Position numbers and translations under genes: made by a program. The notes under the pieces are model-generated. The model saw only the letters and a list, made by a program, of their open reading frames with translations, ran no database searches and was not told the origin of the DNA. From sequence record PZ445511.1: a DNA stretch of 64,000 bases. The stretch is one strand, 5' to 3'. Below are positions 23,718 to 64,000 of this stretch, one piece after another (positions within the stretch are counted from its first letter, which is position 1; every line of letters starts with the position of its first letter). This DNA is from a phage.

Positions 23718-23730
23718 CTGGAGAAAACAA

Positions 23731-24026: not shown

Positions 24027-24302
24027 ATGTTAAAACGTTTTGCAGCAACTGGTATTGAAAGCTCAGTATGTAAATCCTGGGGTGGTTGGGAAGGTGAGAT
24101 CGAGTGGCTTTATTTCTACAATGTAGAACTTCTTCCAGAGATCAAAGCTCAATGTATTGAGGCTGGTATGGCTCCTGATGCTACGGCTGATGTTGAAATC
24201 AGCATGAATAAGCTAGAGGGTCGAGTAGTCACTGTTACTGATGAAGGTGAAGAGGTATTCGAACTTCCATTCACTTTGAAAGTCACTCCTTCATTTGATT
24301 AA
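24027..24302 (+). CDS. hypothetical protein
   Basis: ORF 24009..24302 (TTG); ATG 24027 with GAGAGGAA RBS. Confidence 0.5.
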   Translation: MLKRFAATGIESSVCKSWGGWEGEIEWLYFYNVELLPEIKAQCIEAGMAPDATADVEISMNKLEGRVVTVTDEGEEVFELPFTLKVTPSFD

Positions 24303-24310
24303 CTGATACA

Positions 24311-24351
24311 GCACTTGAGCAAGTTCTTTAAAATTTGACTTGCTCAAGTGC
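24311..24351. repeat. 14-bp perfect inverted repeat overlapping promoter -35
   Basis: gcacttgagcaagt / acttgctcaagtgc separated by 13 bp. Confidence 0.8.
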
Positions 24352-24369
24352 CTTAAAACTTGATATAAT
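24340..24369 (+). promoter_or_regulatory. promoter (TTGCTC-18-TATAAT) ahead of a tRNA block
   Basis: hexamers with 18-bp spacer; no large ORF before tRNA-Tyr. Confidence 0.6.
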
Positions 24370-24493
24370 AGTTACCTAATTTGGAAACATATCTGAATGA
24401 GAAGTAATTAAGCGAGTTGCTTTGAGGGATAAAGTCAGGATAGCCGGAAATATTCCACCTTGAGTTTAACCGACTTACTTTTCATTCAAATAT

Positions 24494-24571
24494 GGGGGAT
24501 TGGCTCAGTGGCGACGGCGCCTGGCTGTAGACCGGGTATATCACGCGGAGGTTCGAGTCCTCCATCCCCCA
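24494..24571 (+). tRNA. tRNA-Tyr(GUA)
   Basis: acceptor gggggat/atccccc, anticodon loop ctgtaga, 10-nt variable region, discriminator A, CCA. Confidence 0.6.
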
Positions 24572-24582
24572 CCAAAATTAAT

Positions 24583-24654
24583 GCACCTATCGTCTAATGG
24601 TTAGGACATCAGGATTTCAATCTGAGAATTGAACTCCGATTCTCCGTGGGTGTG
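24583..24654 (+). tRNA. tRNA-like, probable tRNA-Glu(UUC) with degenerate T-arm
   Basis: acceptor gcaccta/tgggtgt with G-U pairs, good D and anticodon stems, loop atttcaa, CCA encoded. Confidence 0.4.
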
Positions 24655-24666
24655 CCAATTAATAAT

Positions 24667-24734
24667 TGGGGTACACATAGGTTGCTAGTGGGCCTCCAAA
24701 ACCCATGAAAAGGTTTCGAATACCTTTACCCCTG
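24667..24734 (+). tRNA. tRNA-Trp(CCA)-like with shortened D-arm
   Basis: 68 nt; anticodon loop ctccaaa, T-loop ttcgaat, 1-72 U-U mismatch; CCA encoded. Confidence 0.4.
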
Positions 24735-24743
24735 CCAATATTT

Positions 24744-24815
24744 GCACCTTTAGCTGAGATGGATTAGCGCTTGCCTGAAGAGCTTGAGAGGTTCGTTCAA
24801 TTCGAACAGGGTGCA
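24744..24815 (+). tRNA. tRNA-Phe(GAA)-like
   Basis: acceptor gcacctt/agggtgc, anticodon loop ctgaaga, two U-U mismatches in anticodon stem, CCA encoded. Confidence 0.5.
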
Positions 24816-24835
24816 CCAATTTGAAGGAGATGCTG

Positions 24836-25108
24836 ATGCATCCTGAAAACTTCTTTATATACTGTACTAGTCCTTTGCTTAAACGCCGGATTAATAAAGT
24901 ATATCACTACAGAGCTAGTCAACAGCCTTATGTTTATGATTCTAGTGGAGATCATATTCCACTTGAGCAACTAGGGACTGATTATATGGTTTTGAAGCAC
25001 TTTAATGAGGCGAAGATCTCTAGCGTTCATAACCGACAAAACTCTAAAACGTGGTGGCATAAGAAGCGTAAGAAAGGCATCAAATTTCTTAAAAATGTAG
25101 TTGCTTAA
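24836..25108 (+). CDS. hypothetical basic protein
   Basis: ORF 24821..25108 (TTG); ATG 24836 with AGGAG RBS. Confidence 0.5.
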   Translation: MHPENFFIYCTSPLLKRRINKVYHYRASQQPYVYDSSGDHIPLEQLGTDYMVLKHFNEAKISSVHNRQNSKTWWHKKRKKGIKFLKNVVA

Positions 25109-25129
25109 ATCCTTAAAGTTCTGTATAAT
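25101..25129 (+). promoter_or_regulatory. early promoter (TTGCTT-17-TATAAT)
   Basis: promoter family member, overlaps 3' end of upstream ORF. Confidence 0.7.
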
Positions 25130-25157
25130 TATTACATAAATTGAACTGGAGAACTAG

Positions 25158-25346
25158 ATGAAAGCACCTAAACCGAAATTAGTTAAGTTCGACTGCTGTG
25201 ATACTGAAATCTTATTTACTAAGTTTGGTGAATTTAAGATGTGTGAATGTGGAACATGTGGTTACGATCATGGTGATGGATATTATTGCAGAACCCTAGG
25301 GCCTTCTGAACTAATCCACTTCTCATGGCCGGAAAGTAAAGAATAA
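25158..25346 (+). CDS. Cys-rich small protein (putative zinc ribbon)
   Basis: 62 aa; CC..C.C..C..C pattern. Confidence 0.5.
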   Translation: MKAPKPKLVKFDCCDTEILFTKFGEFKMCECGTCGYDHGDGYYCRTLGPSELIHFSWPESKE

Positions 25347-25348
25347 TA

Positions 25349-25421
25349 CGACCGTTGGCTGAATGGCTTAGGCGGAGGCCTGCAAAACCTCCTTATGTGA
25401 GTTCGAATCTCATGCGGTCGT
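25349..25421 (+). tRNA. tRNA-Cys(GCA)
   Basis: acceptor cgaccgt/gcggtcg, anticodon loop ctgcaaa, T-loop ttcgaat, CCA encoded. Confidence 0.6.
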
Positions 25422-25426
25422 CCAAT

Positions 25427-25567
25427 TTGCTGAAAGAATTGTTAAATCAATTCAGGCACGCGTAGGAACACTGCCTCAGTAATTGAAAGATGAGGCACGG
25501 TTTGGAGAGGTATGCCGCTACACGCTACGGTGCTAACTCCGTCTAGGTGAAAATCCTAGTCAGCAAT
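25427..25567 (+). ncRNA. 141-nt tRNA-like RNA (acceptor-like stem plus T-arm-like hairpin around a long insert)
   Basis: ttgctga...tcagcaa terminal pairing; ctagg-tgaaaat-cctag hairpin; internal hairpins; not a canonical tRNA. Confidence 0.3.
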
Positions 25568-25576
25568 ATAAATTTA

Positions 25577-25656
25577 GGGTCGTTAGCCAAGCGGTTTGGC
25601 GGTGGACTGTTAATCCATGTCGAAAGACAACGTAGGTTCGAATCCTACACGGCCCG
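25577..25656 (+). tRNA. tRNA with GUU (Asn) anticodon on a type-II-like body
   Basis: acceptor gggtcgt/acggccc, 3-bp D stem, anticodon stem gtgga/tccat, loop ctgttaa, 13-nt variable arm, discriminator G, CCA. Confidence 0.5.
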
Positions 25657-25762
25657 CCATATTCTATGTAGGATTAAGTAAACCGGTAGCCAACCAGCTA
25701 TCATTACTGATATCGAATTCAGTCACAGATACCATTTTTCACTAACAACTGAGGAAATAGAT

Positions 25763-25948
25763 ATGACAACTCGTGCAATTGCTCGACTAGAAGCTGATCG
25801 TGATAATCTGATTAATAATATTAAGGTTCGTGGTAATATTATTAAGGCTCTGAAAGCTGAACTTCTTGAAGAACTTCAAGGTCAAGTAGAGCGTCGTGAA
25901 GCTCTAAAAGAGGTTGAGGAAGCTATCGAAAAACTCAAGGCTGAATAA
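25763..25948 (+). CDS. hypothetical coiled-coil protein
   Basis: 61 aa with GAGGAAA RBS. Confidence 0.45.
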   Translation: MTTRAIARLEADRDNLINNIKVRGNIIKALKAELLEELQGQVERREALKEVEEAIEKLKAE

Positions 25949-25951
25949 ATT

Positions 25952-26533
25952 ATGCACGGAATATCCTTACCCATTCCAGGGTTTGAGGAGTACTTAGTAA
26001 GTTTGGATGGGTTAGTATTTAGTATCAAATCAAACAAAATACTAACCCCAATAACCAGTAATTATGGATACTTATCTATACGTCTCCATAAAAATGGTCA
26101 ACAGAGAAATACCGGTGTACATAGGATTTTAGCATGTGCATTTAAGAAATTACCAAGTCTAGACTCTGAACTAGAAGTTGACCATATTAACACAGACATT
26201 ACTTATTGGGGTCTTAATAACTTACAAGTGCTCACAAAAGAGCAGCATCTAGAAAAGACTTTAAAAGATAAAGGATTTAGTAAACTAAATCATGATAATT
26301 GTTGTAAGGATTGTGGTAAAGCTATTTCTTTAAAAGCTGAAAAATGTCAGGAGTGCTCTTCACATAAACCAAAAGATATCTCTATAACTAAAGAAATAAT
26401 CGAGGTTACAGTAAGAGAGCTAGGCTGGTCAGGTGCAGGGAGAAAGTTAAATTATTCAGATAATGGGTTGCGTAAAAGATACACTTCTTTAGGAGGCAAT
26501 CCTAAAGAACTTAAAAAGTTAAAGGTACTATAG
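25952..26533 (+). CDS. HNH homing endonuclease with C-terminal Cys4 zinc ribbon
   Basis: 193 aa; EVDHIN..N motif; CKDCG...CQEC; 3' end overlaps tRNA-Asp by 10 nt. Confidence 0.7.
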   Translation: MHGISLPIPGFEEYLVSLDGLVFSIKSNKILTPITSNYGYLSIRLHKNGQQRNTGVHRILACAFKKLPSLDSELEVDHINTDITYWGLNNLQVLTKEQHLEKTLKDKGFSKLNHDNCCKDCGKAISLKAEKCQECSSHKPKDISITKEIIEVTVRELGWSGAGRKLNYSDNGLRKRYTSLGGNPKELKKLKVL

Positions 26534-26595
26534 TCTAACGGTTAGGATACTCCCCTGTCACGGGAGAGGTAGGGTTTCGATTACCCTTAGTACCG
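26524..26595 (+). tRNA. tRNA-Asp(GUC)
   Basis: acceptor ggtacta/tagtacc, anticodon stem ctccc/gggag, loop ctgtcac, T-loop ttcgatt, CCA. Confidence 0.75.
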
Positions 26596-26604
26596 CCAAA
26601 TTAT

Positions 26605-26678
26605 ACATCCATAGCTCAACTGGTCAGAGCTACCGCCTCTTAAGCGGAGGGTTGAAGGTTCAAGTCCTTCTGGGAGTA
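26605..26678 (+). tRNA. tRNA-Lys(CUU)
   Basis: D-stem gctc/gagc, anticodon loop ctcttaa, T-arm gaagg-ttcaagt-ccttc, CCA; one acceptor mismatch. Confidence 0.5.
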
Positions 26679-26686
26679 CCAAACAA

Positions 26687-26880
26687 ATAGAGTAAAGGCT
26701 ACAGTAGGTGCACCCTTACGGACTGCTACACCGGACTCTATTCATTAACAAACATTCTAGCGTGGTGGAGAGGGGACACCAGCTGTGCGAGGGTAGAAGC
26801 TTGTTCGATTCAAGTGAAAGAATGGTTCTCGTAAATCCGCAGCAGTGATAGTAGGTTCAAGTCCTACCTAGATTGACTTA
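26687..26880 (+). ncRNA. unresolved tRNA-like RNAs (two T-arm-like hairpins, one 66-nt acceptor-paired element)
   Basis: atagagt...actctat pairing; T-arm-like gcttg-ttcgatt-caagt and gtagg-ttcaagt-cctac without matching acceptors. Confidence 0.3.
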
Positions 26881-26884
26881 TTAT

Positions 26885-26955
26885 GCGTTCGTAGTTAAAA
26901 GGTATAATTTTTGGTTGCCAACCAGAAGTTGAGGGTTCGATTCCCTCCGACCGCA
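26885..26955 (+). tRNA. tRNA-Gly(GCC)
   Basis: anticodon stem tttgg/ccaga, loop ttgccaa, T-arm gaggg-ttcgatt-ccctc, CCA. Confidence 0.6.
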
Positions 26956-26959
26956 CCAA

Positions 26960-27180
26960 ATTTAGGGTTCTGCTTCCTAGAGAACGGACTCCTAGATAAA
27001 CAAGGCGATGAGTTTCCGGCCGGTTCTAGTCGCTGAAAATCCTCCCGACCAGGTAGGTGTAGGTAAACGAAAGTTTACTTATTGAGTAGGTTCCGATAGA
27101 TCGGCGGATCTATTCTGGCATTTAAGAGAAGTCTCGCAAACTTCTTTGTCAGCAGAGCGTTTGAAGCGTGAGGTGGCCTA
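26960..27180 (+). ncRNA. non-coding tRNA-cluster spacer with hairpins, candidate small RNA
   Basis: 220 nt, no ORF or canonical tRNA; gtcgctgaaaatcctcccgacc element resembles the T-arm-like hairpin of the 25427 element. Confidence 0.25.
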
Positions 27181-27209
27181 CACAATAAGTAAATTTATTA
27201 AAAACTCAT

Positions 27210-27238
27210 TTGCTATTTCACTTAATTCTCTTTATAAT
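27210..27238 (+). promoter_or_regulatory. early promoter (TTGCTA-17-TATAAT) for a tRNA block
   Basis: promoter family member directly upstream of tRNA-Pro. Confidence 0.7.
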
Positions 27239-27270
27239 ATATCTTATAAAGTGAGTTAACAAAGAATATT

Positions 27271-27345
27271 CTCCGTGTAGCTCAGTTTGGCCAGAGCGTT
27301 CCGTTTGGGGCGGTAGGGTCGGGGGTTCAAATCCTCCCACGGAGA
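27271..27345 (+). tRNA. tRNA-Pro(UGG)
   Basis: acceptor ctccgtg/cacggag perfect, anticodon loop tttgggg, T-loop ttcaaat, CCA. Confidence 0.65.
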
Positions 27346-27354
27346 CCAAACAAT

Positions 27355-27429
27355 TGCGGGTTAGATCTCTGGTAGAGATCGCTAGTCTCATAAGCTAGAA
27401 AGAGGTAGGTTCGATTCCTACACCCGCTT
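27355..27429 (+). tRNA. tRNA-Met/Ile(CAU), 1-72 unpaired
   Basis: anticodon stem ctagt/gctag, loop ctcataa, T-arm gtagg-ttcgatt-cctac, CCA; position 1-72 U-U. Confidence 0.5.
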
Positions 27430-27451
27430 CCAATTTAATAGAGGATACGAA

Positions 27452-27616
27452 ATGAAATTATTTCGATTGGTAGTAAGTGATAGACGGTCTAGCAAAGATC
27501 GTTCGAAGTATACCTTAGCCCATTATGGGAAAGATGAAAATGAAGTAATGGCTGAATTTGGTATTAATCATCGCTACTTAGAAGTTTACTCTATTAAGGA
27601 AGTTTATCCGTATTAA
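27452..27616 (+). CDS. hypothetical small protein (54 aa)
   Basis: GAGGA RBS 6 nt before ATG; stop abuts tRNA-Lys. Confidence 0.4.
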   Translation: MKLFRLVVSDRRSSKDRSKYTLAHYGKDENEVMAEFGINHRYLEVYSIKEVYPY

Positions 27617-27691
27617 GGGTCGTTAGCTCAATTGGTTAGTAGCACTTGCCTTTTAAGCAATAGGTTGAAGGTTCGAGTCCTTCACGACCCA
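27617..27691 (+). tRNA. tRNA-Lys(UUU)
   Basis: acceptor gggtcgt/acgaccc perfect, anticodon loop cttttaa, T-arm gaagg-ttcgagt-ccttc, CCA. Confidence 0.7.
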
Positions 27692-27703
27692 CCAAATTAC
27701 TTT

Positions 27704-27774
27704 GCTCGGTTAGTTTAATGGGAGAACCCCGTCTTTACACGGCGGTTGCGATAGTTCGATTCTATCACCGAGTA
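27704..27774 (+). tRNA. tRNA-Val(UAC)
   Basis: anticodon stem ccgtc/ggcgg, loop tttacac, T-arm gatag-ttcgatt-ctatc, CCA. Confidence 0.7.
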
Positions 27775-27802
27775 CCAATTAACTCAAAATAAGGAATTGC
27801 AA

Positions 27803-28156
27803 ATGCAATTATCAAGCAAGATTCAAGGCTATTTTGGTCATGTAACAATGGAGTTCGCTATCTCTAAAGGTTGGGATTTCGAGCAAGATCTAGCTGAGTT
27901 CTACAAAGATATTGATCTGAACGTACCATACATGGGACTCTCCACTGGTCAAGAGATCACAGAAGGCGATGTGTTCAAGGCAAGTCAAGGTGAGGTAACA
28001 CCTAATTTTGCCAAGTTCTGGTTAGGACTTACTTTGAAGGAAGATGCACCAGAGGATGGTGTGGTTATGCAGAGTATGCACTCTGGAAGCTCTGATTACC
28101 TTTTCGTTAGCGACGTTAAGGAACTACAAGAAATCGCTAAAAATGTACTTGCTTGA
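27803..28156 (+). CDS. hypothetical protein
   Basis: ORF 27797..28156; ATG 27803 with AAGGA RBS; stop overlaps next promoter -35. Confidence 0.55.
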   Translation: MQLSSKIQGYFGHVTMEFAISKGWDFEQDLAEFYKDIDLNVPYMGLSTGQEITEGDVFKASQGEVTPNFAKFWLGLTLKEDAPEDGVVMQSMHSGSSDYLFVSDVKELQEIAKNVLA

Positions 28157-28177
28157 TGCTTAATTTCTTGTTATAAT
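28149..28177 (+). promoter_or_regulatory. early promoter (TTGCTT-17-TATAAT) for a tRNA block
   Basis: promoter family member. Confidence 0.7.
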
Positions 28178-28179
28178 AT

Positions 28180-28439
28180 TTATATAAATTGATGAGGAGA
28201 AATCCTCATCAAAGTTCACTAAGGTATTAGCTCGACCTAGGGCTGGCTGCCAAAAAGCACAATTGCAATTAGACCCCTAATGGCGGGGGATACTTTGCAA
28301 TAAGTTCTAGATTAGTCCACTAGATTCAGTGGCAACTGAATAGTGTATCGGGTTTGTGAAGAGCGGTTATCCTCTACTGGCTAATGTCTGAGGGTAATAC
28401 GCACACCGAGCTAATAGCCTTAGTAAACTTAAAGATTTT
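28180..28439 (+). ncRNA. 260-nt structured leader or small RNA ahead of the tRNA-Ala pair
   Basis: hairpins gatgagga-gaaa-tcctcatc (28191-28210) and ccact-agattc-agtgg; no ORF. Confidence 0.3.
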
Positions 28440-28515
28440 GGGGAATGGGTCTGCTTGGAGTGGACACCTCGCTTGCACCGAGGATATCAGAAGAGTTCGA
28501 ATCTCTTATTCTCCA
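28440..28515 (+). tRNA. tRNA-Ala(UGC)-like
   Basis: G3-U70 pair, anticodon stem cctcg/cgagg, loop cttgcac, T-arm aagag-ttcgaat-ctctt, CCA; atypical D and variable lengths. Confidence 0.5.
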
Positions 28516-28523
28516 CCAAATTC

Positions 28524-28596
28524 GGGGTCATAGGTTATTTGGTTAAACTTACTGCCTTGCAAGCAGTGGAACTCAGTTCAATTCTGAGTGACTCCA
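28524..28596 (+). tRNA. tRNA-Ala(UGC)
   Basis: G3-U70 pair, anticodon stem actgc/gcagt, loop cttgcaa, T-arm ctcag-ttcaatt-ctgag, CCA. Confidence 0.65.
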
Positions 28597-28618
28597 CCAA
28601 ACAAATTAAGGAAATAAT

Positions 28619-28837
28619 ATGGTATTCTTAGCAGCCTCTGTAGTTCTTGCAGCTTTAGCACTAGCTATCTATTTTAGAACTATTAAAGATTTAGCTAAAG
28701 AAAAGAAAACTTTCTTTACTGATTATTCTTGGGGCGCTCCATATAACGTCCGCTTTATCAGCTTAGAAGCTATGCTGATAATGGTATTCAGTGGCATAGG
28801 TTCCATTGTTGCAGGGTTACTATTTATTTCTAACTAA
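28619..28837 (+). CDS. small membrane protein
   Basis: 72 aa with two hydrophobic helices. Confidence 0.5.
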   Translation: MVFLAASVVLAALALAIYFRTIKDLAKEKKTFFTDYSWGAPYNVRFISLEAMLIMVFSGIGSIVAGLLFISN

Positions 28838-28844
28838 ATAAAAT

Positions 28845-28922
28845 GGGGATGTGGCGAAATTGGCAGACGCGCTAGATTTAGGTTCTAGTCTTCGGGTGTG
28901 GGTTCGAGTCCCTCCATCCCTA
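28845..28922 (+). tRNA. tRNA-Leu(UAG)
   Basis: anticodon stem ctaga/tctag perfect, loop tttaggt, 9-nt variable region, discriminator A, CCA. Confidence 0.6.
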
Positions 28923-29099
28923 CCAAACATTGGATTAACTCATGATGAAAACTCCTATAACTGATATCTGGTTAGCTGTTAATACATCAACTAAAGAGTA
29001 TGTGTTTATAGAGTATGGTCAGAGGTATGACCAAAAGATGTATAATCTCATACTTCCAGTATCTGCTAATGAAGTTTATGATTTAATCCTGAGATCTAC

Positions 29100-29189
29100 G
29101 GAAGAGCAAATCGATTAGGTGACGAAAACCGCTTGGAAAGTGGCTGACTTGTTAAAGCAGGCTTGAGAGTTCGAATCTCTCTTCTTCCG
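29100..29189 (+). tRNA. tRNA-Ser(GGA)
   Basis: 90 nt, acceptor ggaagag/ttcttcc, anticodon loop ttggaaa, long variable arm, discriminator G, CCA. Confidence 0.55.
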
Positions 29190-29213
29190 CCAAACAACTA
29201 ATAGGGAATATAA

Positions 29214-29456
29214 ATGAAAGTCAAGATTATGATGTTGGATTTAGCTAATGATAAGTTTTTCTTGCGTCATACATTCCCTAGTAAGCAAGCTTTAGAGTTT
29301 CATATCAAGTACGCAATGGGCATGAAACTTCCTGAGCGAGAAATATTTGATAAAGCATGTGATACTGGAGTTATTTATGTATGGCAAACAACCTATCATG
29401 ATAATCCAGAAGATCTTCGAAAAGAAGTAGAACAAATACTAGAAGATAGTACGTAG
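29214..29456 (+). CDS. hypothetical protein
   Basis: 80 aa; 3' end overlaps tRNA-Ser(UGA) by 16 nt. Confidence 0.5.
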   Translation: MKVKIMMLDLANDKFFLRHTFPSKQALEFHIKYAMGMKLPEREIFDKACDTGVIYVWQTTYHDNPEDLRKEVEQILEDST

Positions 29457-29527
29457 TGGTATGTAACCGGTCTTGAAAACCGGCCCGCTGTAGTGATACG
29501 GTGATGGTTCGACTCCATTATCTTCTG
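29441..29527 (+). tRNA. tRNA-Ser(UGA)
   Basis: acceptor agaagat/atcttct perfect, anticodon stem ccggt/accgg, loop cttgaaa, long variable arm, discriminator G, CCA. Confidence 0.7.
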
Positions 29528-29530
29528 CCA

Positions 29531-29667
29531 AATCTTGAAGTATGCCGGAATCGGTAGACGGGGCTTCCTAAAGGGCGTAAGGGGAACATCCACTCCTCAT
29601 AAGATACCCGAAAACGAGGCTGAGATAACTGGTCTATCTCGTGAAGGTTCGAGTCCTTCTGCTTCTT
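29531..29667 (+). ncRNA. tRNA-like RNA with canonical T-arm but no clean cloverleaf
   Basis: T-arm gaagg-ttcgagt-ccttc at 29643-29659 preceded by hairpin gagata-actggtc-tatctc; best acceptor partner aggggaa at 29580 has a mismatch; no CCA. Confidence 0.3.
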
Positions 29668-29669
29668 GA

Positions 29670-29855
29670 TATTCATCAATGGCTCAAAGTGTAACGGTGC
29701 TATTTGATGCTCTTAGTAAGACTTTCCCGACATGCGTTCGGGAGTAAGCTGCTAAGGCTAGAGTAGAAGAGTTTCGGAGAGCCGCCACAATTGAAGTCTT
29801 TAGAATGGGTATCGCCCTTTAGCCCCTCCGAAAGGGATAACTAGAGATTTCAATT
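29670..29855 (+). ncRNA. structured non-coding segment bounded by 11-bp inverted repeat
   Basis: ccacaattgaa (29776-29786) and ttcaattgtgg (29849-29859) flank a GC hairpin ccctttagcccctccgaaaggg. Confidence 0.25.
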
Positions 29856-29929
29856 GTGGCTATATCATAATTGGTTAATGATCCTGATTGTGAATCAGGC
29901 CTATGTGGATTCGAATTCCACTAGCCACC
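29856..29929 (+). tRNA. tRNA-His(GUG)
   Basis: acceptor gtggcta/tagccac perfect, anticodon stem cctga/tcagg, loop ttgtgaa, T-arm gtgga-ttcgaat-tccac, CCA. Confidence 0.7.
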
Positions 29930-29938
29930 CCAAATATT

Positions 29939-30010
29939 GCGTCCTTATTTCAACGGAAAGAATGTAAAGCTACGAACTTTACGATCGGGGTTCGATTCCC
30001 TGAGGATGCA
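29939..30010 (+). tRNA. tRNA-Arg(ACG)
   Basis: anticodon stem taaag/cttta, loop ctacgaa, T-arm cgggg-ttcgatt-ccctg, CCA. Confidence 0.7.
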
Positions 30011-30037
30011 CCAATTAACTTAAACAGGAAATAAAAT

Positions 30038-30238
30038 ATGGCTGATTTCTGCAAAGAATGCTCTATTGATATGTGGGGCAGAGATACTGGTGATCTTTCT
30101 GGTCTGATTACAGAAGCCGAAGTTAAAGAAGGCTATGGTGCTGTTGTAATCTGTGAAGGTTGTGGCATTATCCGTGTTGATCATAATGGTAAACGTCTAG
30201 AAGAACCTGATCCAATCGCCACGGTTCCTGTAGAATAA
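30038..30238 (+). CDS. Cys-rich small protein (CxxC...CxxC)
   Basis: 66 aa; CKEC...CEGCG. Confidence 0.5.
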   Translation: MADFCKECSIDMWGRDTGDLSGLITEAEVKEGYGAVVICEGCGIIRVDHNGKRLEEPDPIATVPVE

Positions 30239-30245
30239 AAATTAT

Positions 30246-30318
30246 TGGGATGTAGATCAATTGGTAGATCGTCGGCCTCTGACTCCGAAGGTTCCACGTT
30301 CGATCCGTGGCATCCCAG
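30246..30318 (+). tRNA. tRNA-Gln(CUG)
   Basis: U1-A72, anticodon loop ctctgac, T-arm ccacg-ttcgatc-cgtgg, CCA. Confidence 0.65.
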
Positions 30319-30327
30319 CCAAACAAT

Positions 30328-30400
30328 TGGAGAGTAGTGTAACGGTTAGCACAACGGCCTTTGACTCCGTTAATGGTAGGTTCGATTCCTCCTTCTCCAG
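30328..30400 (+). tRNA. tRNA-Gln(UUG)
   Basis: paralog of previous; anticodon loop ctttgac; U1-A72; CCA. Confidence 0.65.
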
Positions 30401-30409
30401 CCAATTTAT

Positions 30410-30481
30410 GCGTGATTAGTTCAGTGGCTAGAATAACTGGCTTCCAACCAGTAGACACGAGTTCGACTCTCGTATCCCGCA
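30410..30481 (+). tRNA. tRNA-Gly(UCC)
   Basis: anticodon stem actgg/ccagt, loop cttccaa, T-arm acgag-ttcgact-ctcgt, CCA. Confidence 0.7.
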
Positions 30482-30500
30482 CCAAATATAAGGAAACGTT

Positions 30501-30722
30501 ATGGACGTTTTTGAGTTTCGTAATAAAAATCCTAATAGACGAGTTTTAATTATTGGTGAAACATACCGAGCTTATGAACAGGAAGACGGTTCGGTTTTAT
30601 TAAATGATGAAAAGCAAGGCTATAGCTTTCATCCAGAAGAAACATATGAAGAATTTCGTACTAAGTTTCTTTTACCAGACTGGCTAGCAATAGCTGAGCA
30701 AAGAGAACCCGAAGAGGGCTGA
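30501..30722 (+). CDS. hypothetical acidic protein
   Basis: 73 aa with AAGGAAA RBS. Confidence 0.5.
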   Translation: MDVFEFRNKNPNRRVLIIGETYRAYEQEDGSVLLNDEKQGYSFHPEETYEEFRTKFLLPDWLAIAEQREPEEG

Positions 30723-30750
30723 TAATCTAAAGCTAAAGGTTGATAAGCAA

Positions 30751-30879
30751 ATGAAGTGTGTTGAGGTTGAGTTGGGTGAAGAACGTTTAAAACTCTCATT
30801 CGAATTTCTACAGCAGTTGGCTATGACAGTAATGTCTGATAAGTCCCTTATATTTGAAAAAGAAATCCCGTTGAAATAA
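30751..30879 (+). CDS. possible small protein (42 aa)
   Basis: ATG with AAAGG upstream; below ORF-track length cutoff. Confidence 0.25.
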   Translation: MKCVEVELGEERLKLSFEFLQQLAMTVMSDKSLIFEKEIPLK

Positions 30880-30889
30880 TGGGTTTATT

Positions 30890-30961
30890 GCTCCTAAAGC
30901 ATTGCTGGCGATGCAGTTGCCTTGTAAGCATCTGAACCGGGTTCGATTCCAGGTGGGAGCA
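30890..30961 (+). tRNA. tRNA-Thr(UGU)
   Basis: acceptor gctccta/tgggagc, anticodon loop cttgtaa, T-loop ttcgatt, CCA; single mismatches in stems. Confidence 0.55.
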
Positions 30962-30980
30962 CCAAATTTAAAAAATTCAT

Positions 30981-31009
30981 TTGCCTTCTCTCTTATTTCT
31001 TGTTATAAT
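30981..31009 (+). promoter_or_regulatory. early promoter (TTGCCT-17-TATAAT)
   Basis: promoter family member. Confidence 0.65.
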
Positions 31010-31039
31010 ATTTATATAAATTAATTAGAGGGAAACCAA

Positions 31040-31333
31040 ATGAAACGTTATCTTTCTGTCGTGTTCCAAACTGGTGGTCAACGCTACACTTATGAATTTC
31101 CTGAGTCCTGGAAAATTAAAGAAGGTGATCAAGTTGTTGTATTAACACCTCGTGAAGGCTTCAAAGTAGTAACGGTTAAACAAGTATTTCCAAAAGATCA
31201 CGAACCATCTAAGTCTATTCAGTACAAGATGATTCACGGTCTGGTACGAAAAGTACCTAGAACAGAAGTCGAAGTAGATAAAACTGGGGGAGTTAAGTAT
31301 CAATATACATCCTACTTAGACGAGATGATGTAA
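31040..31333 (+). CDS. hypothetical protein
   Basis: 97 aa ORF. Confidence 0.55.
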   Translation: MKRYLSVVFQTGGQRYTYEFPESWKIKEGDQVVVLTPREGFKVVTVKQVFPKDHEPSKSIQYKMIHGLVRKVPRTEVEVDKTGGVKYQYTSYLDEMM

Positions 31334-31533
31334 TGAGAATTACTTTCACAGAAAAGATTATGTGTAATGGTGTTATGATCATTACAGCGTGGGACGGTAA
31401 ATTGTGGTGTAACGTATCTGGTCTAAAGCCAGAAGATCAAACACCTGAAAACATCCGCAAAGTAAAGCGAAAAATGGCGGAACGTGCCCAACTTCCAGGT
31501 GCTCCAAGAAATGGAGGCTATTTTTCAACCTAA
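31333..31533 (+). CDS. hypothetical protein
   Basis: 66 aa ORF, start overlaps upstream stop. Confidence 0.5.
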   Translation: MRITFTEKIMCNGVMIITAWDGKLWCNVSGLKPEDQTPENIRKVKRKMAERAQLPGAPRNGGYFST

Positions 31534-31534
31534 T

Positions 31535-31607
31535 GCTCCGATAGTTCAACAGGTTAGAACAGGCGACCGATAATCGTCAAATCTTGGTTCGATCCCAAGT
31601 CGGAGTA
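31535..31607 (+). tRNA. tRNA-Ile(GAU)
   Basis: D-stem gttc/gaac, anticodon stem ggcga/tcgtc, loop ccgataa, T-arm cttgg-ttcgatc-ccaag, CCA. Confidence 0.6.
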
Positions 31608-31616
31608 CCAAATTAT

Positions 31617-31689
31617 AGTTAGTTGGCAGAACGGTTATGCACCTCCTTCATACGGAGCGACTACAGTGGTTCAACTCCACTACTAACTA
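31617..31689 (+). tRNA. tRNA-Met/Ile(CAU)
   Basis: acceptor agttagt/actaact perfect, anticodon loop ttcatac, T-arm agtgg-ttcaact-ccact, CCA. Confidence 0.55.
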
Positions 31690-31875
31690 CCAAAGATAAG
31701 ATCAGGCCTTTGTGCCAGATCTCTGTGTTTATTAAACTGAATGGGACTATCAATCCACAAGCCGGACTACGAGCGATTATCGGGTATTCACTTAATAAAC
31801 AGCCTGCCTCCCAGTTTTTATCTTGCTTCTGGGTTAACAAAAAGCTGAGCCAAATTCTAACATCAGGGAGATCTA

Positions 31876-56969: not shown

Positions 56970-58634
56970 ATGAATATTTCCGCAGAAAAACAAGCTCAAA
57001 TTTTGAAAATGGCCGCAGATTTTAACTTCTACGGTAAGCGTTTACGCGCTACTAAATTGGAAGTTTGCGACGATATTTCAAAAGCTGTTTATGATACGCC
57101 GAAACATTCAACCGCAATTTGTGATTGGCTGGAAGCAAACAAGCCAGCGAAACCGAAAGCGGCAAAAGCTGAAAAGGCGATTAAAAATGATGATCGCCCC
57201 GAAGCGGCGGGAATTGTTTCTAGTACCGTTGAACAATGGGAAGTTAAATCCGGTCGCCGTTTTATTCTAACGTCGATTCAAAATAATACTTTCCCTCATA
57301 AAAACTTTTTAGCAAGTCTAGAAAAATTCGCTGAATATTGCGGCGCTGAATTGCTGATTAGTAAATTCATTTATAATAAAAATGGATTCCAGAACGGGGA
57401 AGGGGCAAACGGTATTAAATACGATCCCGCATTTGATAAATATGTTTGTGATAAAAACGTATTTTTAAATAACCGCCGCTTTGCTTTCATGGCTGAAATT
57501 AACGTTTTGCCAACGGCAGATTATCCGCTTTCAGGATTCGCAGAAACTGCCACCGCTTTAAATATTGAAGGTCTGGCAATTGGTCACGCAAAAATTACCG
57601 CCGAAAGCGTGCCAGCTTTAAAAGGTGAAGTAGTGCGCCGTATGTATTCAACCGGAACGGCTACACTTAAAAACTATATTCAGCAGAAAGCAGGTCAAAA
57701 AGCTGAGGCTTTACATAATTACGGCGCTTTGCTGGTAGAATTTGACGACGACGGCGAATTTTTCGTGCGCCAGCTTGAAACAATGGACGAAAGCGGAATG
57801 TTCTATGATCTGAATATTTGCGCCACTCCTAGCGGTTGCAAAGAAATTACCGGACACATTTTAGGCTTACAATATGGCGATATTCACGCCGAAAAATTAG
57901 ATGATGAATGCGCCGTCGCTTCATGGGCTAGTGAAAATTCATTGCTTGATATTCTTAAACCGAAATATCAGTTTATTCATGATGTGCATGATTTTACATC
58001 GCGTAACCATCACAACCGCGCTAGTGGTGTATTCCTTGCTAAACAGTACGCCGCAGGACGTGATAAAGTTATTGATGATCTCATTGATACCGGTCGCGTG
58101 TTGGAATCTATGGAACGTGAATTTAGTCAAACAATCATTGTGGAATCCAACCATGATTTAGCTCTTTCACGCTGGCTTGATGATCGTAACGCAAACATTA
58201 AGGACGATCCCGCAAACGCCGAGCTATACCACAGCCTAAACGCTGCGATTTACGCCGCAATTGCAAAACAAGATGATACCTTTAACGTATTGGATTACGC
58301 GCTTAGAAACGTTGCAGGTTGCGAATTTAACGCTATTTTCCTGACTACTGACCAGTCATTTAAAATCGCTGGCATTGAATGTGGCGTACATGGTCACAAC
58401 GGCATTAATGGCAGTCGGGGCAATCCTAAACAGTTTAAAAAGTTGGGACGCCTTAACACTGGTCACACTCACACGGCTAGCATATACGGCGGCGTTTATA
58501 CCGCTGGCGTTGCTGGTAGTCTCGATATGGGTTACAACGTGGGCGCGTCAAGCTGGACGCAAACGCATTTAATTACCTATGCAAACGGGCAACGTACTTT
58601 GATTGATTTCAAAAACGGTAAATTCTTTGCATAA
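56970..58634 (+). CDS. A1: pre-early A1-like metallophosphoesterase
   Basis: 554 aa; phosphoesterase motifs GDIHAE, HDVHD, HTHT; size fits my recollection of T5 A1. Confidence 0.6.
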   Translation: MNISAEKQAQILKMAADFNFYGKRLRATKLEVCDDISKAVYDTPKHSTAICDWLEANKPAKPKAAKAEKAIKNDDRPEAAGIVSSTVEQWEVKSGRRFILTSIQNNTFPHKNFLASLEKFAEYCGAELLISKFIYNKNGFQNGEGANGIKYDPAFDKYVCDKNVFLNNRRFAFMAEINVLPTADYPLSGFAETATALNIEGLAIGHAKITAESVPALKGEVVRRMYSTGTATLKNYIQQKAGQKAEALHNYGALLVEFDDDGEFFVRQLETMDESGMFYDLNICATPSGCKEITGHILGLQYGDIHAEKLDDECAVASWASENSLLDILKPKYQFIHDVHDFTSRNHHNRASGVFLAKQYAAGRDKVIDDLIDTGRVLESMEREFSQTIIVESNHDLALSRWLDDRNANIKDDPANAELYHSLNAAIYAAIAKQDDTFNVLDYALRNVAGCEFNAIFLTTDQSFKIAGIECGVHGHNGINGSRGNPKQFKKLGRLNTGHTHTASIYGGVYTAGVAGSLDMGYNVGASSWTQTHLITYANGQRTLIDFKNGKFFA

Positions 58635-58686
58635 TTAAATTTAATCGGCGGTTGAAATATACCGCCATTAATAAAAGGTTTATTAA

Positions 58687-58965
58687 ATGGCTAGTAAAAT
58701 TAATATATCTATCCCTGATAGCAATTGTTTAGAAGATATTGCATGGTCTGAAATGTCTTTTGATAGTTGCGTTTATTTAGTTACCCGTGGAATGTACGCG
58801 GGAATGTACGCCGTATGGGATAGTAATATTGGCGAAAATATGATCTTTTTCGGAAAAGATTCTATTCAGGTAATGACAGGCGATTACCTTAATCAAGAAA
58901 GGAAAGACGGCGACGAAACATATTTTCGTAAAACTGATTTATCTTTAAATGTATTTTTTCAATAA
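58687..58965 (+). CDS. hypothetical protein
   Basis: 92 aa. Confidence 0.5.
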   Translation: MASKINISIPDSNCLEDIAWSEMSFDSCVYLVTRGMYAGMYAVWDSNIGENMIFFGKDSIQVMTGDYLNQERKDGDETYFRKTDLSLNVFFQ

Positions 58966-58997
58966 ATCCCGTAATTAAATAATCTGGAGTCATAAAC

Positions 58998-59390
58998 ATG
59001 AAAAACCAAAACATTCCTTTTGATCGTGCTACTTCTTCCATCGTTCTAGTTTATTCTAATGGCGAACGTTATCACGTCGAAGCGGGGCAAGTTAATTTCG
59101 ATTTGCTGAATTATAACGACGCTTTGCAGGTTACTACCTTTGCTTATGATACCGGCAAAGTGGCAAGCCATACGAAAGCAAAAGGCGTTTACGCTGATAC
59201 TTTGACAGTGCAAACAATCATTATTGATGCGCTTAAATCCGGTCTAGCGTTTGCGGTTGTTAAGCCGTGTCCGGTCTGCAATCCCGAAGCTAGCGCAATG
59301 GTTTATACTTGCGCGGGTATCCGTTCTAGCGTACATGGTGAAGATCTTTCCTTTATCGGTGACGCGCTAGCGTATGGCCTCACTAACTAA
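58998..59390 (+). CDS. hypothetical protein
   Basis: 130 aa. Confidence 0.5.
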   Translation: MKNQNIPFDRATSSIVLVYSNGERYHVEAGQVNFDLLNYNDALQVTTFAYDTGKVASHTKAKGVYADTLTVQTIIIDALKSGLAFAVVKPCPVCNPEASAMVYTCAGIRSSVHGEDLSFIGDALAYGLTN

Positions 59391-59477
59391 TAGTTAATTG
59401 AACATTGCCAGCTAATCTAATATAATTAGCTGGCAAGATTGAATTAACCTAAATCCCTTAAATGGAGAATGTAACAA

Positions 59478-60212
59478 ATGAATCAAGTCAACATGAATAT
59501 TACCCGCACTTTCCCGCATATTTCCCGCGTTATGATTTGGGATTTAGACGGGACAATCATTAATTCATTCCATCGTGTAGCGCCTTGCTTTGATGATAAC
59601 GGGAATTTAGATTTAAATAAGTATTCCCGCGAAGCCTGCAAACATGAATTAATTATGCAGGATTCCTTATTACCATTGGTTGAATATATGCGCCAATGTA
59701 TGAATGATCCCAATACCTTAAACCTTATTTGTACCGCTCGCTTAATGGGTAAATCTGATTATTATTTCTTGCGTAAACAAAGTCTAAGAGGGCGCGGAAA
59801 TAGTAATATTCGCGTATTTTCCCGCGATACATTACATAAATACTTTGATGCAAATAAGGTTAGTGAAATATATCACAGCAAAGACGCAGTATATAAAAGC
59901 TATTACTTTGAACTGTTTAAACAGCTATATCCTAACGCTGATTTTACGATGATTGATGATCATAAAGGCGTATTATCAGCAGCAGCAAACGCAGGATTTA
60001 AAACGCTGGACGCTCAAGCTGTTAACGATATCCTATCAATTGGGGTAACATTGATTGGTGAAACCTTTATTGATGAATCGCTTGATGATGATAACGATTA
60101 TCAATTCCTAGCCGAACGTTTAAAAATGTGTTGGGAAGGTATGACCGAGGAAGAACGCGCAGAATATAGTACCACTCCGCAACAGTTCATCGACAAATTA
60201 AAAGTTGCCTAA
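59478..60212 (+). CDS. dmp: HAD-superfamily phosphatase, 5'-deoxyribonucleotidase-like
   Basis: 244 aa; HAD motif IWDLDGTI; size fits T5 Dmp. Confidence 0.6.
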   Translation: MNQVNMNITRTFPHISRVMIWDLDGTIINSFHRVAPCFDDNGNLDLNKYSREACKHELIMQDSLLPLVEYMRQCMNDPNTLNLICTARLMGKSDYYFLRKQSLRGRGNSNIRVFSRDTLHKYFDANKVSEIYHSKDAVYKSYYFELFKQLYPNADFTMIDDHKGVLSAAANAGFKTLDAQAVNDILSIGVTLIGETFIDESLDDDNDYQFLAERLKMCWEGMTEEERAEYSTTPQQFIDKLKVA

Positions 60213-60375
60213 CAATTAAAAATAAAATAGTCACACTGTGTAATGATAACATGGTGTGACTATTAGCTTGCTAAGTACCGGGGCGGTAATGAGACTCATT
60301 CTCATCTGTGGAACCTCTGGGCACACCTTCATGTGTAATCTTATGAAATTTCGAGAATTGGTAATTAGCGCTAAC

Positions 60376-60912: not shown

Positions 60913-61376
60913 TATAACCACCCCGCCATAGCTGCTAACCAAAAGAGTACAAAGATAAAGAATAACACAGTCCCGAATCCGAAACTATTTATCCAACTTT
61001 CGTACACTTCCCCGCGTCTGTTCTTTCTTCTGTTGTCGCCTGACATCTCTTTGCTTCTCCTGTAAGTCCGGTATTTGGAATACCCTAGCAAATTGCACGA
61101 ACCATTATGACTGTCCCGATAAGATCCATTACTTCGTCGAAGCCGGATTCTTCTAGTAAGAAGGATGTTCCCATCACGTCTTCTATTGTATCTTCTATGA
61201 CGTCTTGAATGATTTCATCAATTGCATCATGTATTGCTTTTTAGTCCTGGGATCTATTTCAAAGTTAACAGGTTCCTGAAAGGACTTTTCTTCATCTTGC
61301 ATTGTGTTTGCTACCTGTACCTCATCCCAGAAATAAAAATTTTTGTTTACTTCGAGATCTTTTTACTTTATACTAA

Positions 61377-61643
61377 TTACAAGTGACCAGATTGTTCTAG
61401 TTTAAATTTGCAATCGCCATATTTGAGATCAAACTGTGACAGATCCCACCACCCAAACTTAGTGCGTAACTGAGTTTTAGGGAATCGATAGCCCACAGTA
61501 CGTGCTTCTCGAATATCTAAAGCATAGTGTTCTTCACCAACATGACCATAAGACTTCACGTATGCCTTACAGAACGGCTTAGGAGCTGGTACACAACCAG
61601 TCAACACTACTGCTGCAACTACGATAGCTAGTAACTTTTTCAT
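61377..61643 (-). CDS. llp: Llp-like lipoprotein (candidate receptor-blocking superinfection-exclusion protein)
   Basis: 88 aa; signal peptide with lipobox LTGC; divergent from and adjacent to RBP gene. Confidence 0.55.
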   Translation of the reverse strand: MKKLLAIVVAAVVLTGCVPAPKPFCKAYVKSYGHVGEEHYALDIREARTVGYRFPKTQLRTKFGWWDLSQFDLKYGDCKFKLEQSGHL

Positions 61644-61726
61644 AATCGTTCCTCTGTTTAATTTATAAATATATTATAGCAAAATAGAGGGATCTAAGCA
61701 AATACATTTTTAAAGAAGGAGATTGT

Positions 61727-63508
61727 ATGAGTTTTTTCGCAGGAAAATTTAGTGATGGTAAAACTGTATTATCTCTAAACGCTGCTAATGGTGGTGATAT
61801 AAATCAGCACTACTCTCCAAATACTAATAGTATCTTCCACTCAGATATGCCATTTGTCCTAGTTGATGGGACTTACGAGGCTGCTCTAGGTGATGCAGGT
61901 AATGGGTATTTTGTTACTCAGATGCCTTGGGATATTATAAACATTAAATCCAATGATCCTGGTAGAGTTATATTAACTGCTATTGAGATAAATGGTACTC
62001 ATAGGGGTTTCCTTAATGGTACACAATCTCAGGTTGGCCAGTTCTTATCATTCTTTGAAGACCAACCACGTGCTGGTGCTGAATTATCTGTAACATCTGC
62101 TTTTGCTATCGGTGATAGTTTAGCTCATGGTACCTATATCTATAATGGTGGTCTTGGCCATGAGGAATCTATTGCTCGGCAAGGTTCTGGAGGCAGTTTA
62201 CTACAGTCCTCTGGTTTCCAGATCTTTAGACCTGGTGGTGTTTCTGCTGGTGAAGCCATTGCCAGAGCCTGGAGTCTTATGGGTTTTCCAACTGGTGTCT
62301 CTACTGTTCCTTTAGATGGTGGTAACGCAGATTATTGGGATCCTAACTGGCAGGCGCCTATTGGTTCTGCTGGTAGAGGCCATGATTGGTTTTATGTTTG
62401 TAGTTCTAATATTCGTGGCTTCGCAGGTAAAAAAGGCGTACTACCAGATAACGTAAACATTAACTACCAATCCCCCTCCTTTCCTACTAAAGTATACGTT
62501 TGTAGGGGTTCTACAACTAATATGGCTGCGCAAGCCACTAGAAAGGTGTATGTACAGGACTGGTACAACGTTACGCCAACTAAGGTTATTTGGTATGTAC
62601 TAAATCTGCGCTATTCTAATGGTAGTATGGGAGTTTCTGGTAATCCATTTACCGGTTCAGATATCCTAATATCTCCATCTAACTTTACTATTAAAGGTGT
62701 TAGCCTACCAAATACAGGCTATAAATTTATCAACCAGAATGCTTTCGGAAACTTAGGCTATCGCCCTGATATGGAGTATGTTGGTAATAACGCTGCGTAT
62801 ACCGGAGTTTTTGGTGATAATACTGCACGATGTGAATTTATCGGCTCTAGTAATGGTGGGTTGTGGTCGCCCGTTAACTATGGGGGTGCAGCTTCCCAAA
62901 TTAGCCTATATAAATTTGGTGTAGGTAAACAATGGTATGTAGATACTAATACCAACTCCATCGGTAATGAACATGGACCTGTGTGGAGTCCTAGTACTGT
63001 ACCCCTCAGGTTATTTCCAGGCAACGTTGCAAGTACTTATGTTGGTGATGATATAACTCCTTCCTACCCTGGTGCTGGTGACTTCTATACACCTTTGGCC
63101 ACTGTTTGGTTAGGATTACCTAATGCTCACTCTACCGTTATATTAACTACTGAAGTTATTATGGGTAATCTTAATACTGCTGGAATGCCTGTGCGTACTT
63201 ACGGCGGTAGCGCTTGGCAGGTACAAGGTAGACGTCAACAAAGTTATACAGCTGGTGATGGTGTATTCCATCAGATTCTTACTCTGCCACCTGGATATCT
63301 AGTACCTTATCACAGTACAACTTCCTATAGTTATACACAAACTTGGGCTAGTAGGCCAGATGAGTTTGCTTTCCGTAGGAACGGATATATTTATACTATT
63401 AAAAACCTTGGTAATGGCAACGTTGAATTGGGTGTTATCATTCACGCTGCGGAAGCGGCGGCTGTTTTCTTGCCAAGACTACGTGTAACAGTTCAACGCC
63501 TAACCTAA
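61727..63508 (+). CDS. oad: receptor-binding tail protein, pb5-like
   Basis: 593 aa; N-terminus MSFFAGK and C-terminus QRLT match my recollection of T5 pb5; Gly/Asn-rich. Confidence 0.6.
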
Positions 63509-63518: not shown

Positions 63519-64000
63519 ATGGCAAATGATGTATTAGTTCCCGATCTCATGTCTCCTGAGGGCATGGATGTTATTGAAGCCTATTTACAGTGCGGTAGTG
63601 ATGTTCCTGCCGCCGCTCGTAGTCTTGGAATGTCCGAGATTGCATTTCGTGATATAATGAATCGTGGGGAAGTTAAAAACTATCTCAACGATATCTTTAT
63701 GGAAAGCGGCTTCCGTAATCGTGACCGCTTATTCGGAGTTCTTGACGAAGTTATCAAGCGTAAGCTGGAAGAACTTGAAGAAACTGGCATGGGTTCTGAC
63801 CAGGATATCATGGATATTCTCTGGAAGGCGCACAAGATGAAAATGGAAGAAATGAAAATGATGGTAGAACTGGAGAAAGTGAAGGCAGCAGCCCGTACTC
63901 CGGCTAACCAGACTAACATTCAGAATAATATTATTGCTGGAAGTGGTGACGAAAACTATATGAATCTTATTACCGCTCTAGCAGGAGGAGGTAAGAGATA
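63519..64000 (+). CDS. HTH-containing protein, 3'-truncated by window end
   Basis: ATG 63519 with AGGAGGA RBS; open to window edge; N-terminal helix-turn-helix-like segment. Confidence 0.5.

Follow-up and report, generated by a model that had tools for sequence, protein, structure and literature searches.

A T5-like host-recognition cassette of the probable BtuB type, with a divergently encoded putative receptor-blocking lipoprotein, in a phage genome segment

The right-hand end of the window (the whole stretch of 64,000 nucleotides analysed here, from record PZ445511.1) carries, with a probability that we put at roughly 90%, the BtuB version of the host-recognition cassette of T5-like (Epseptimavirus) phages, in which a receptor-binding protein (RBP) is paired with a divergently encoded receptor-blocking lipoprotein. 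BtuB is the TonB-dependent transporter of vitamin B12. Directly shown are the presence of both genes, their homology and synteny, the conservation of the promoter, purifying selection and the assignment to a receptor class, and the proposal builds on these. The original prediction placed a small lipoprotein and an RBP of about 600 aa in divergent orientation at 61377-63508, and genes of 88 aa (minus strand) and 593 aa (plus strand) occupy exactly this span. Its further claim of a T5-type receptor-binding and superinfection-exclusion module is borne out by the same synteny as in T5 and BF23, by a pb5 homologue and by homology to the BF23-type Llp.

Genomic setting and organization of the cassette

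Over bases 40000-64000, the window is 98-99.5% identical to the Salmonella phages S147, MET_P1-88, S.Typ Adana and others, and is assigned to a T5-like Salmonella/E. coli phage (Demerecviridae, Epseptimavirus). The features of the cassette and its neighbourhood are as follows.

56970-58634: A1, a pre-early gene, neighbour of the cassette
59478-60212: dmp, a pre-early gene, neighbour of the cassette
Between dmp and the lipoprotein gene, minus strand: a run of small membrane ORFs
61377..61643, minus strand: gene of the putative receptor-blocking (superinfection-exclusion) lipoprotein, 88 aa (ORF list, lipobox, homology)
61593..61643, minus strand: predicted signal peptide and lipid-attachment Cys17, codons 1-17 (translation; LPAM_1, residues 1-17)
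61644..61726, no strand: divergent intergenic region of 83 bp between the lipoprotein and RBP genes
61651-61654, minus strand: llp ribosome-binding site, GAGG
61673-61678, minus strand: llp promoter -10, TATAAT, with a 17-nt spacer to the -35 (comparative alignment)
61696-61701, minus strand: llp promoter -35, TTGCTT (comparative alignment)
Upstream of the llp promoter, minus strand: A-tract (comparative alignment)
61716-61721, plus strand: rbp ribosome-binding site, AAGGAG
61727..63508, plus strand: gene of the receptor-binding tail-tip protein (pb5/Oad/Hrs family, assigned to the BtuB-binding class), 593 aa (phrog_4815, pb5 structures, homology)
63519..64000, plus strand: terminase small subunit gene (sciB position in T5; phrog_3802, E 2e-90)

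The gene order dmp, small ORFs, llp (minus), rbp (plus) and terS is identical in the window, T5, BF23, SPC35 and DT571/2. The terminase small subunit gene continues past the end of the window and forms the conserved right border of the cassette. At the nucleotide level, the flanks are 65-94% identical to T5, including 83-94% in the terminase small subunit region, versus 15-60% within about 61100-63500; identity to BF23 stays at 60-86% within the cassette. Purifying selection acts on both genes (dN/dS against relatives 0.05-0.21, and 0.07-0.16 for the RBP), and these values, together with homologues of the lipoprotein in 398 and of the RBP in 534 phage records, identify them as real genes and not chance ORFs. 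The numbers of partners also agree closely, since the 398 records with this lipoprotein type compare with 399 that hold an RBP of at least 60% identity.

The 83-bp spacer between the two divergently transcribed genes is strikingly conserved between the FhuA and BtuB versions of the cassette. When the window is aligned with T5, BF23, SPC35, DT571/2 and S132, both promoter hexamers and the A-tract are invariant in the six phages, and the T5 and BF23 records annotate putative promoters at the matching place. A generic scan detected no promoter between the two genes, because the -35 hexamer fits just 3/6 positions; the promoter is seen only by comparative alignment. A conserved minus-strand promoter fits early expression of llp, for which Decker et al. 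1994 is cited in PMC10644984. No convincing intrinsic terminator was found after the lipoprotein or the RBP gene, and the terminator-like matches fall within coding sequence.

The receptor-binding protein and its receptor class

The RBP is assigned as a full-length homologue of T5 pb5. Its residues 1-593 match positions 1-650 of the profile phrog_4815 ('receptor binding tail protein') at E 2.6e-283, a PDB sequence search recovers T5 pb5 from two solved structures (chains 8B14_B and 8A8C_B, E 2e-46), and BLASTP aligns residues 1-593 with T5 pb5 at 29% identity (E 1.3e-52). Both proteins begin with MSFFAGK... and end with ...QRLT, and the RBP is best conserved at its N terminus and in its last residues. 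Per 30-residue block, identity to pb5 is 57%, 31% and 40% over residues 1-90, 13-21% over residues 91-270 and 30-47% over residues 271-360; past residue 360 it is mostly 22-42%, with one block at 9%. In the FhuA-pb5 structure, the receptor-contacting loops include the tips Gln115 and Phe170 as well as residues 570-590 (PMC9586334). These loops fall in poorly conserved segments of the RBP, which is consistent with a changed receptor.

T5-like RBPs fall into three clusters that predict the use of BtuB, FepA or FhuA (PMC8594841, BASEL), and the RBP of the window groups with the BtuB-binding class, apart from the FhuA and FepA clusters. Its identity is 99.7% to PMBT36, 96% to SuperGirl/Bas29, 95% to EPS7 and 92% to S132, followed by 82.5% to SPC35, 75% to BF23 Hrs and 65% to DT571/2. 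By comparison, identity is 29-30% to the FhuA-type RBPs of T5 and S130 and 28% to the Shivani type. The original prediction had described the termini as pb5-like, correctly so because the block identities to T5 are highest in the N-terminal residues (57% over the first 30 aa versus 13-21% over 91-270). The alignment to the pb5 family that it proposed as a check returned a full-length match, at 29% to T5 and 75% to BF23, and the internal sequence, which it had expected to reveal the receptor, indeed places the RBP in the BtuB class (75-96% identity to BF23, SPC35, S132, EPS7 and Bas29).

Published work on these relatives points to the same transporter. PMC8594841 states that BtuB use was shown for EPS7 and S132, and the BASEL supplement lists BtuB for Bas29 (SuperGirl). 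BtuB is likewise used by BF23 (PMC10644984), SPC35 (PMC8624392) and DT57C/DT571/2 (PMC4728585). Furthermore, phage Sw2 has an essentially identical module, whose RBP resembles that of T5 at the N and C termini with about 27% identity overall and is 73% identical to BF23 Hrs; its authors concluded that BtuB is the receptor (PMC8273493). The receptor of the phage described here is thus almost certainly BtuB, not FhuA, as judged by these sequence relationships.

We consider it extremely unlikely that the same module addresses another outer-membrane transporter, be it FhuA as in T5, FepA as in H8 or a further TonB-dependent protein. Receptor choice does vary in the pb5 family, which uses at least three receptors (PMC8594841), and the BtuB class itself is most variable in the presumed receptor-binding region, where the RBP and that of DT571/2 share 39-43% over residues 151-270. 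However, DT57C/DT571/2, with RBPs at 65% identity, are still BtuB users (PMC4728585), and the much closer EPS7, S132 and Bas29 (92-96%) are reported to be BtuB-dependent. The RBP is merely 29% identical to T5 pb5 and to S130, both of the FhuA type, and 28% identical to the Shivani type; FhuA and FepA targeting was rejected on this identity of 28-30% to T5, S130 and Shivani.

With BtuB as the preferred receptor, the 593-aa RBP would sit as a monomer on the tip of the straight central tail fibre (pb4) and trigger DNA ejection, as homology and the T5 structures suggest (PMC9586334). Its conserved N-terminal, core and C-terminal parts would maintain the pb5 fold and keep the protein attached to the fibre, and its divergent loops (at about residues 90-270 and in a stretch close to the C terminus) would insert into the extracellular side of BtuB. 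Such binding would make adsorption irreversible and set off ejection of the DNA.

The divergent lipoprotein and its relation to Llp and Cor

The product of the minus-strand gene starts with MKKLLAIVVAAVVLTG, directly followed by C17, and this segment comprises a basic n-region, a hydrophobic core and the lipobox L-T-G-C17. The N-terminal sequence, MKKLLAIVVAAVVLTGC, thereby has the form of a classical lipoprotein signal peptide, of which residues 1-16 would be removed to leave a mature protein of 72 aa. Pfam LPAM_1 matches residues 1-17 under its curated cut-off (18.6 bits vs 20; E 0.0025). The +2 residue after Cys17 is Val, not Asp. According to the +2 rule, a residue other than Asp after the lipid-attachment Cys leads to outer-membrane sorting, so this residue suggests that the lipoprotein is sorted to the outer membrane.

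In an alignment of 12 family members with 25 invariant columns, C17, C25 and C78 (Cys1, Cys9 and Cys62 of the mature protein) and the C-terminal FDL.YGDCK motif are invariant; variation is centred on residues 26-57, and residues 58-88 are almost invariant. The AlphaFold (AF2) model, with a pLDDT of 83, contains five strands and a C-terminal helix. The family forms 11 clusters in a large protein database, and an exhaustive profile search of 1.84 billion cluster representatives returned, apart from two spurious repeat proteins, just one strong cluster and the distant lipoprotein P0013, which makes this a very narrow family. Pfam and NCBIfam searches with both proteins of the cassette yielded nothing useful beyond the lipobox model and a sub-threshold 'Phage_lipoprotein' match.

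The closest relatives are the S132 'receptor blocking protein' and its Sw2 counterpart (98.9% identity each) and the EPS7 protein (96.6%). The Llp proteins of BF23, SPC35 and DT571/2 align over 88/88 residues at 68-70% identity (69% for BF23) with a BLASTP E of about 1e-48. DT57C llp is identical to the DT571/2 gene, and its leaky expression lowered the plating of BF23 and the DT phages more than 100-fold and left T5 unaffected (PMC4728585); for BF23 llp, an earlier report cited in the same paper gives a drop in plating of more than 6 logs. We found no experiment in the literature on this phage or on the EPS7-type allele, which diverges by 31% from the tested BF23/DT57C allele. Judged by homology, the lipoprotein is probably a BF23/EPS7-type blocker that acts against BtuB-dependent phages.

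Small phage lipoproteins are readily confused, and this one, with no match to any curated Pfam or NCBIfam family, could in principle act in lysis like an o-spanin or be a membrane 'moron' that has no part in adsorption. Its relatives T1 Cor and P0013 do give weak matches to Rz-like spanin PHROGs (E 0.007-0.09), mostly via the signal-peptide region, whereas the mature lipoprotein alone matches the Cor/Llp profile at E 2.4e-14. In addition, the gene always lies divergent beside the RBP gene in one-to-one pairing, its product is 69% identical over the full length to the functionally tested BF23/DT57C Llp, and the ORF list holds no overlapping or adjacent i-spanin partner. A spanin role was rejected because of the missing partner gene and the homology to a tested Llp, and we regard any such role apart from adsorption as very improbable.

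A second reservation concerns specificity within the receptor-blocking reading. The EPS7-type allele might be shifted relative to the BF23 type, so that cross-exclusion with BF23-type phages is incomplete; it may, for instance, be adapted to Salmonella BtuB, or may protect only against RBPs of its own subtype. By identity, the homologues form two separate groups (at least 95% in 192 records, 60-80% in 204), the differences are concentrated in residues 26-57 with residues 58-88 nearly invariant, and among the relatives compared S132 is close to the window in both proteins and SPC35, BF23 and DT571/2 are distant in both. Nevertheless, DT57C Llp excluded phages with substantially differing RBPs (PMC4728585), phages with the EPS7-type allele plate on both hosts (Bas29; PMC8594841), and E. 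coli and Salmonella BtuB are expected to have a conserved periplasmic face. We therefore rate such a shift as unlikely, while giving it a small but real chance, and retain a blocker of BtuB-dependent phages as the preferred reading.

The original prediction called the lipoprotein Llp-like, a description that stands for position, architecture and membership of phrog_1119, but not for direct similarity to T5 Llp, which was detected neither pairwise nor in the fold search. The BLASTP match to T5 Llp (E 0.018) is confined to the signal peptide and CxAY, and the mature part has no detectable pairwise similarity. A phmmer search against the PDB gave no match to the T5 Llp chains 8A60_B and 7QJF_A at E<=10 and no other PDB match, and hhalign of the mature family with mature T5 Llp reached a probability of 0.3% over 6 columns. 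Foldseek with the AF2 model found no PDB match at E<=0.001, and Llp (7QJF, 8A60) was absent from the best 50. The PDB matches that did appear were insignificant, and comprised small beta-barrel, chromo and Tudor-like folds only. A search of BFVD with the model gave the phiR2-01 receptor-blocking protein at a TM of 0.80 and, as a weak match, a 'super-infection exclusion protein' of phage CEC_Kaz_2018 (TM 0.44, E 2e-3); against T5-type (slur09) Llp the TM is 0.43-0.48 with an E of only 0.28. AF2 predicted T5 Llp itself poorly, as noted in PMC9586334.

By comparison, profile searches place these proteins together. The lipoprotein matches phrog_1119 (Cor/Llp) at E 1.3e-23 (84 bits) over its full length and at E 2.4e-14 (54.5 bits) with the mature part alone; the same profile is matched by mature T5 Llp (E 1.4e-11), by mature T1 Cor (E 1e-20; 105 bits for T1 Cor) and by full-length P0013, the metagenomic relative (E 1e-11), and the four proteins each match it over their whole length. 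Aligned by hhalign from Cys to Cys, the mature family and T1 Cor share 27% identity over 56 columns (P 0.0064), although the shallow profiles keep the probability at just 5.9%. P0013 connects the two groups, with E 7e-6 to the lipoprotein family and a BLASTP E of 8e-4 to T1 Cor. The arrangement of a lipid-attachment Cys with one further Cys near each mature end parallels T5 Llp, in which Cys11 and Cys58 form a disulfide (PMC9586334), and by this analogy Cys25 and Cys78 would be joined in the lipoprotein.

The lipoprotein may thus be called Llp-like for its genomic position, its architecture, its presumed function and the profile family to which it belongs, without being a close homologue of T5 Llp, whose type occurs in just 34 phage records versus 398 for the type found here. 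In the literature, the BtuB-blocking lipoproteins of T5-like phages are described as non-homologous to T5 Llp. A link between the BtuB-type Llp, T5 Llp and Cor is suggested by evidence at the profile level only. Tentatively, and at somewhat less than even odds, we propose that the BF23/EPS7-type lipoproteins are true, very divergent members of the Cor/Llp family and that the EPS7-type allele could differ in specificity from that of BF23. If true, a single small disulfide-clamped lipoprotein scaffold would have been retargeted among TonB-dependent transporters (FhuA to BtuB) along with its partner RBP.

In the proposed mechanism, the 88-aa lipoprotein would be made early from the conserved sigma-70 promoter and, after export and lipidation at Cys17, would be held in the inner leaflet of the outer membrane, on the periplasmic side. 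There it would bind the periplasmic face or the plug of BtuB, by analogy with T5 Llp on FhuA, and lock the transporter in a state that the RBP cannot bind. Superinfecting BtuB-dependent phages would be excluded in this way, and progeny would be kept from adsorbing to debris. We know of no structure of a BtuB-lipoprotein or BtuB-RBP complex. The mechanism of periplasmic plug jamming and loop refolding has been solved just for T5 Llp on FhuA, and its authors proposed it as general for TonB-dependent transporters (PMC9586334); allosteric blocking from the periplasm by the lipoprotein of the window is inferred from that precedent.

Implications and comparison with known modules

The module is already known from several papers and from its annotation in hundreds of phage genomes, and its identification in the window leaves current understanding unchanged. 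Its practical value is confined to annotation and to the planning of phage therapy. Likely use of BtuB predicts a route to resistance (loss of btuB), the choice of complementary phages for cocktails, and cross-resistance with BF23-, EPS7- and SPC35-like phages and with E colicins; the lipoprotein, in turn, predicts superinfection exclusion among BtuB phages.

Our comparison with known systems reveals graded degrees of likeness. The Cor lipoproteins of T1, phi80, N15 and HK022 are small outer-membrane proteins with the same Cys pattern, and T1 Cor belongs to phrog_1119 like the window protein. They differ in that FhuA is their reported target and their genes lie beside J-type tail genes in unrelated siphophages; direct similarity to the lipoprotein is marginal, and the Cor-like match of its model is weak (TM 0.44, E 2e-3).

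The oad (pb5)-llp module of T5 occupies the same genomic slot in the same divergent orientation, with the same conserved early promoter. Its RBP is homologous over the full length, and its lipoprotein matches phrog_1119 and shares the three-Cys layout. By contrast, the T5 receptor is FhuA, the RBPs are 29% identical with a middle part at 13-21%, and the mature part of Llp has no pairwise similarity to the window protein. Structures are available for the T5 system, namely 8A8C and 8B14 for FhuA-pb5 and 8A60 and 7QJF for Llp.

Closer still is the hrs-llp module of BF23, also found in DT57C/DT571/2 and SPC35, which has the same architecture and the same protein families (RBP 65-82.5% and lipoprotein 68-70% identical). 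Its receptor is BtuB, and its Llp has been shown to exclude BtuB phages (PMC4728585). The BF23-type lipoprotein is a different allele from that of the window, with the variation in residues 26-57, and blocks within residues 151-270 of the RBPs fall to 39-60% identity with the window RBP.

The module of EPS7, S132 and SuperGirl (Bas29) consists of essentially the same genes as that of the window, with RBPs 92-96% and lipoproteins 96.6-98.9% identical. In the EPS7 record, the RBP matches in three pieces and is unannotated, and the signal peptide of the EPS7 lipoprotein is longer by one Ala. The order, spacing and promoter of this module match those of the window, BtuB is its reported terminal receptor, and it differs from the window by allelic differences only.

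Genomic surroundings of the receptor module

Within the window, the pre-early terminal-repeat region gives way to the late region over approximately 56970–60335, and a cluster of tRNA genes, one of which ARAGORN assigns as a selenocysteine tRNA with a UGA-reading anticodon, is found in another part of the window.

Features surrounding the receptor module
17822–31692, plus strand: cluster of 28 tRNA genes
17822–17895, plus strand: tRNA gene with anticodon TCA, called tRNA-SeC by ARAGORN, a member of this cluster
56970–58634: A1, terminal-repeat side
Two small ORFs, terminal-repeat side
59478–60212: dmp, terminal-repeat side
61092–61304, minus strand: broken homologue of S132 orf145, directly downstream of the lipoprotein gene

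If the T5 and BF23 records are taken as a guide, the edge of the terminal repeat should lie about 120 nt past the dmp stop. Because a further 50 kb of the window extends upstream of the terminal-repeat region, the repeat seems to be present as a single collapsed copy in the assembly.

A disrupted orf145 homologue

The orf145 protein of phage S132 comprises 89 aa. In the window, two small insertions, one of 2 nt within an A-run and another of 1 nt further on, reduce its counterpart to a 35-codon stub. At least 12 other phage records contain this broken allele with 100% identity, in each case unannotated; the frame break is thus inherited rather than a read error.

The lipoprotein position in other T5-like phages

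The receptor-binding protein of Salmonella phage Shivani shares 28% identity with that of the window, and no lipoprotein ORF adjoining it was found in the region compared (L008, 1–1300). The corresponding slot is occupied by an orf145 homologue, with an HNH endonuclease gene located farther out. A blocking lipoprotein at this position is therefore not common to every receptor-binding-protein class of T5-like phages.

Another T5-like phage, represented by a 111-kb Logan contig from SRR27755633 (L010, region 1–1116), carries a lipoprotein, P0013, in the same slot. P0013 consists of 86 aa and is far more divergent, with ~26% identity to the window family. The accompanying receptor-binding protein, whose gene is truncated by the contig end, matches the BtuB class at only 45–50% identity, and T5 at 37%, over its first 240 residues. 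The pair may constitute a further variant of the receptor module.

The divergent promoter region

Our alignment of the spacer at 61644–61726 with five relatives (T5, BF23, SPC35, DT571/2 and S132) reveals that the promoter region hardly differs between the FhuA-type cassette of T5 and the BtuB-type cassettes, even though the coding DNA flanking it on either side is unrelated or highly diverged between the two types. Recombination within the module may be anchored at this divergent promoter region. In the study of phage DT57C, too, a recombination point was located between hrs, the BF23-type receptor-binding protein gene, and llp (PMC4728585).
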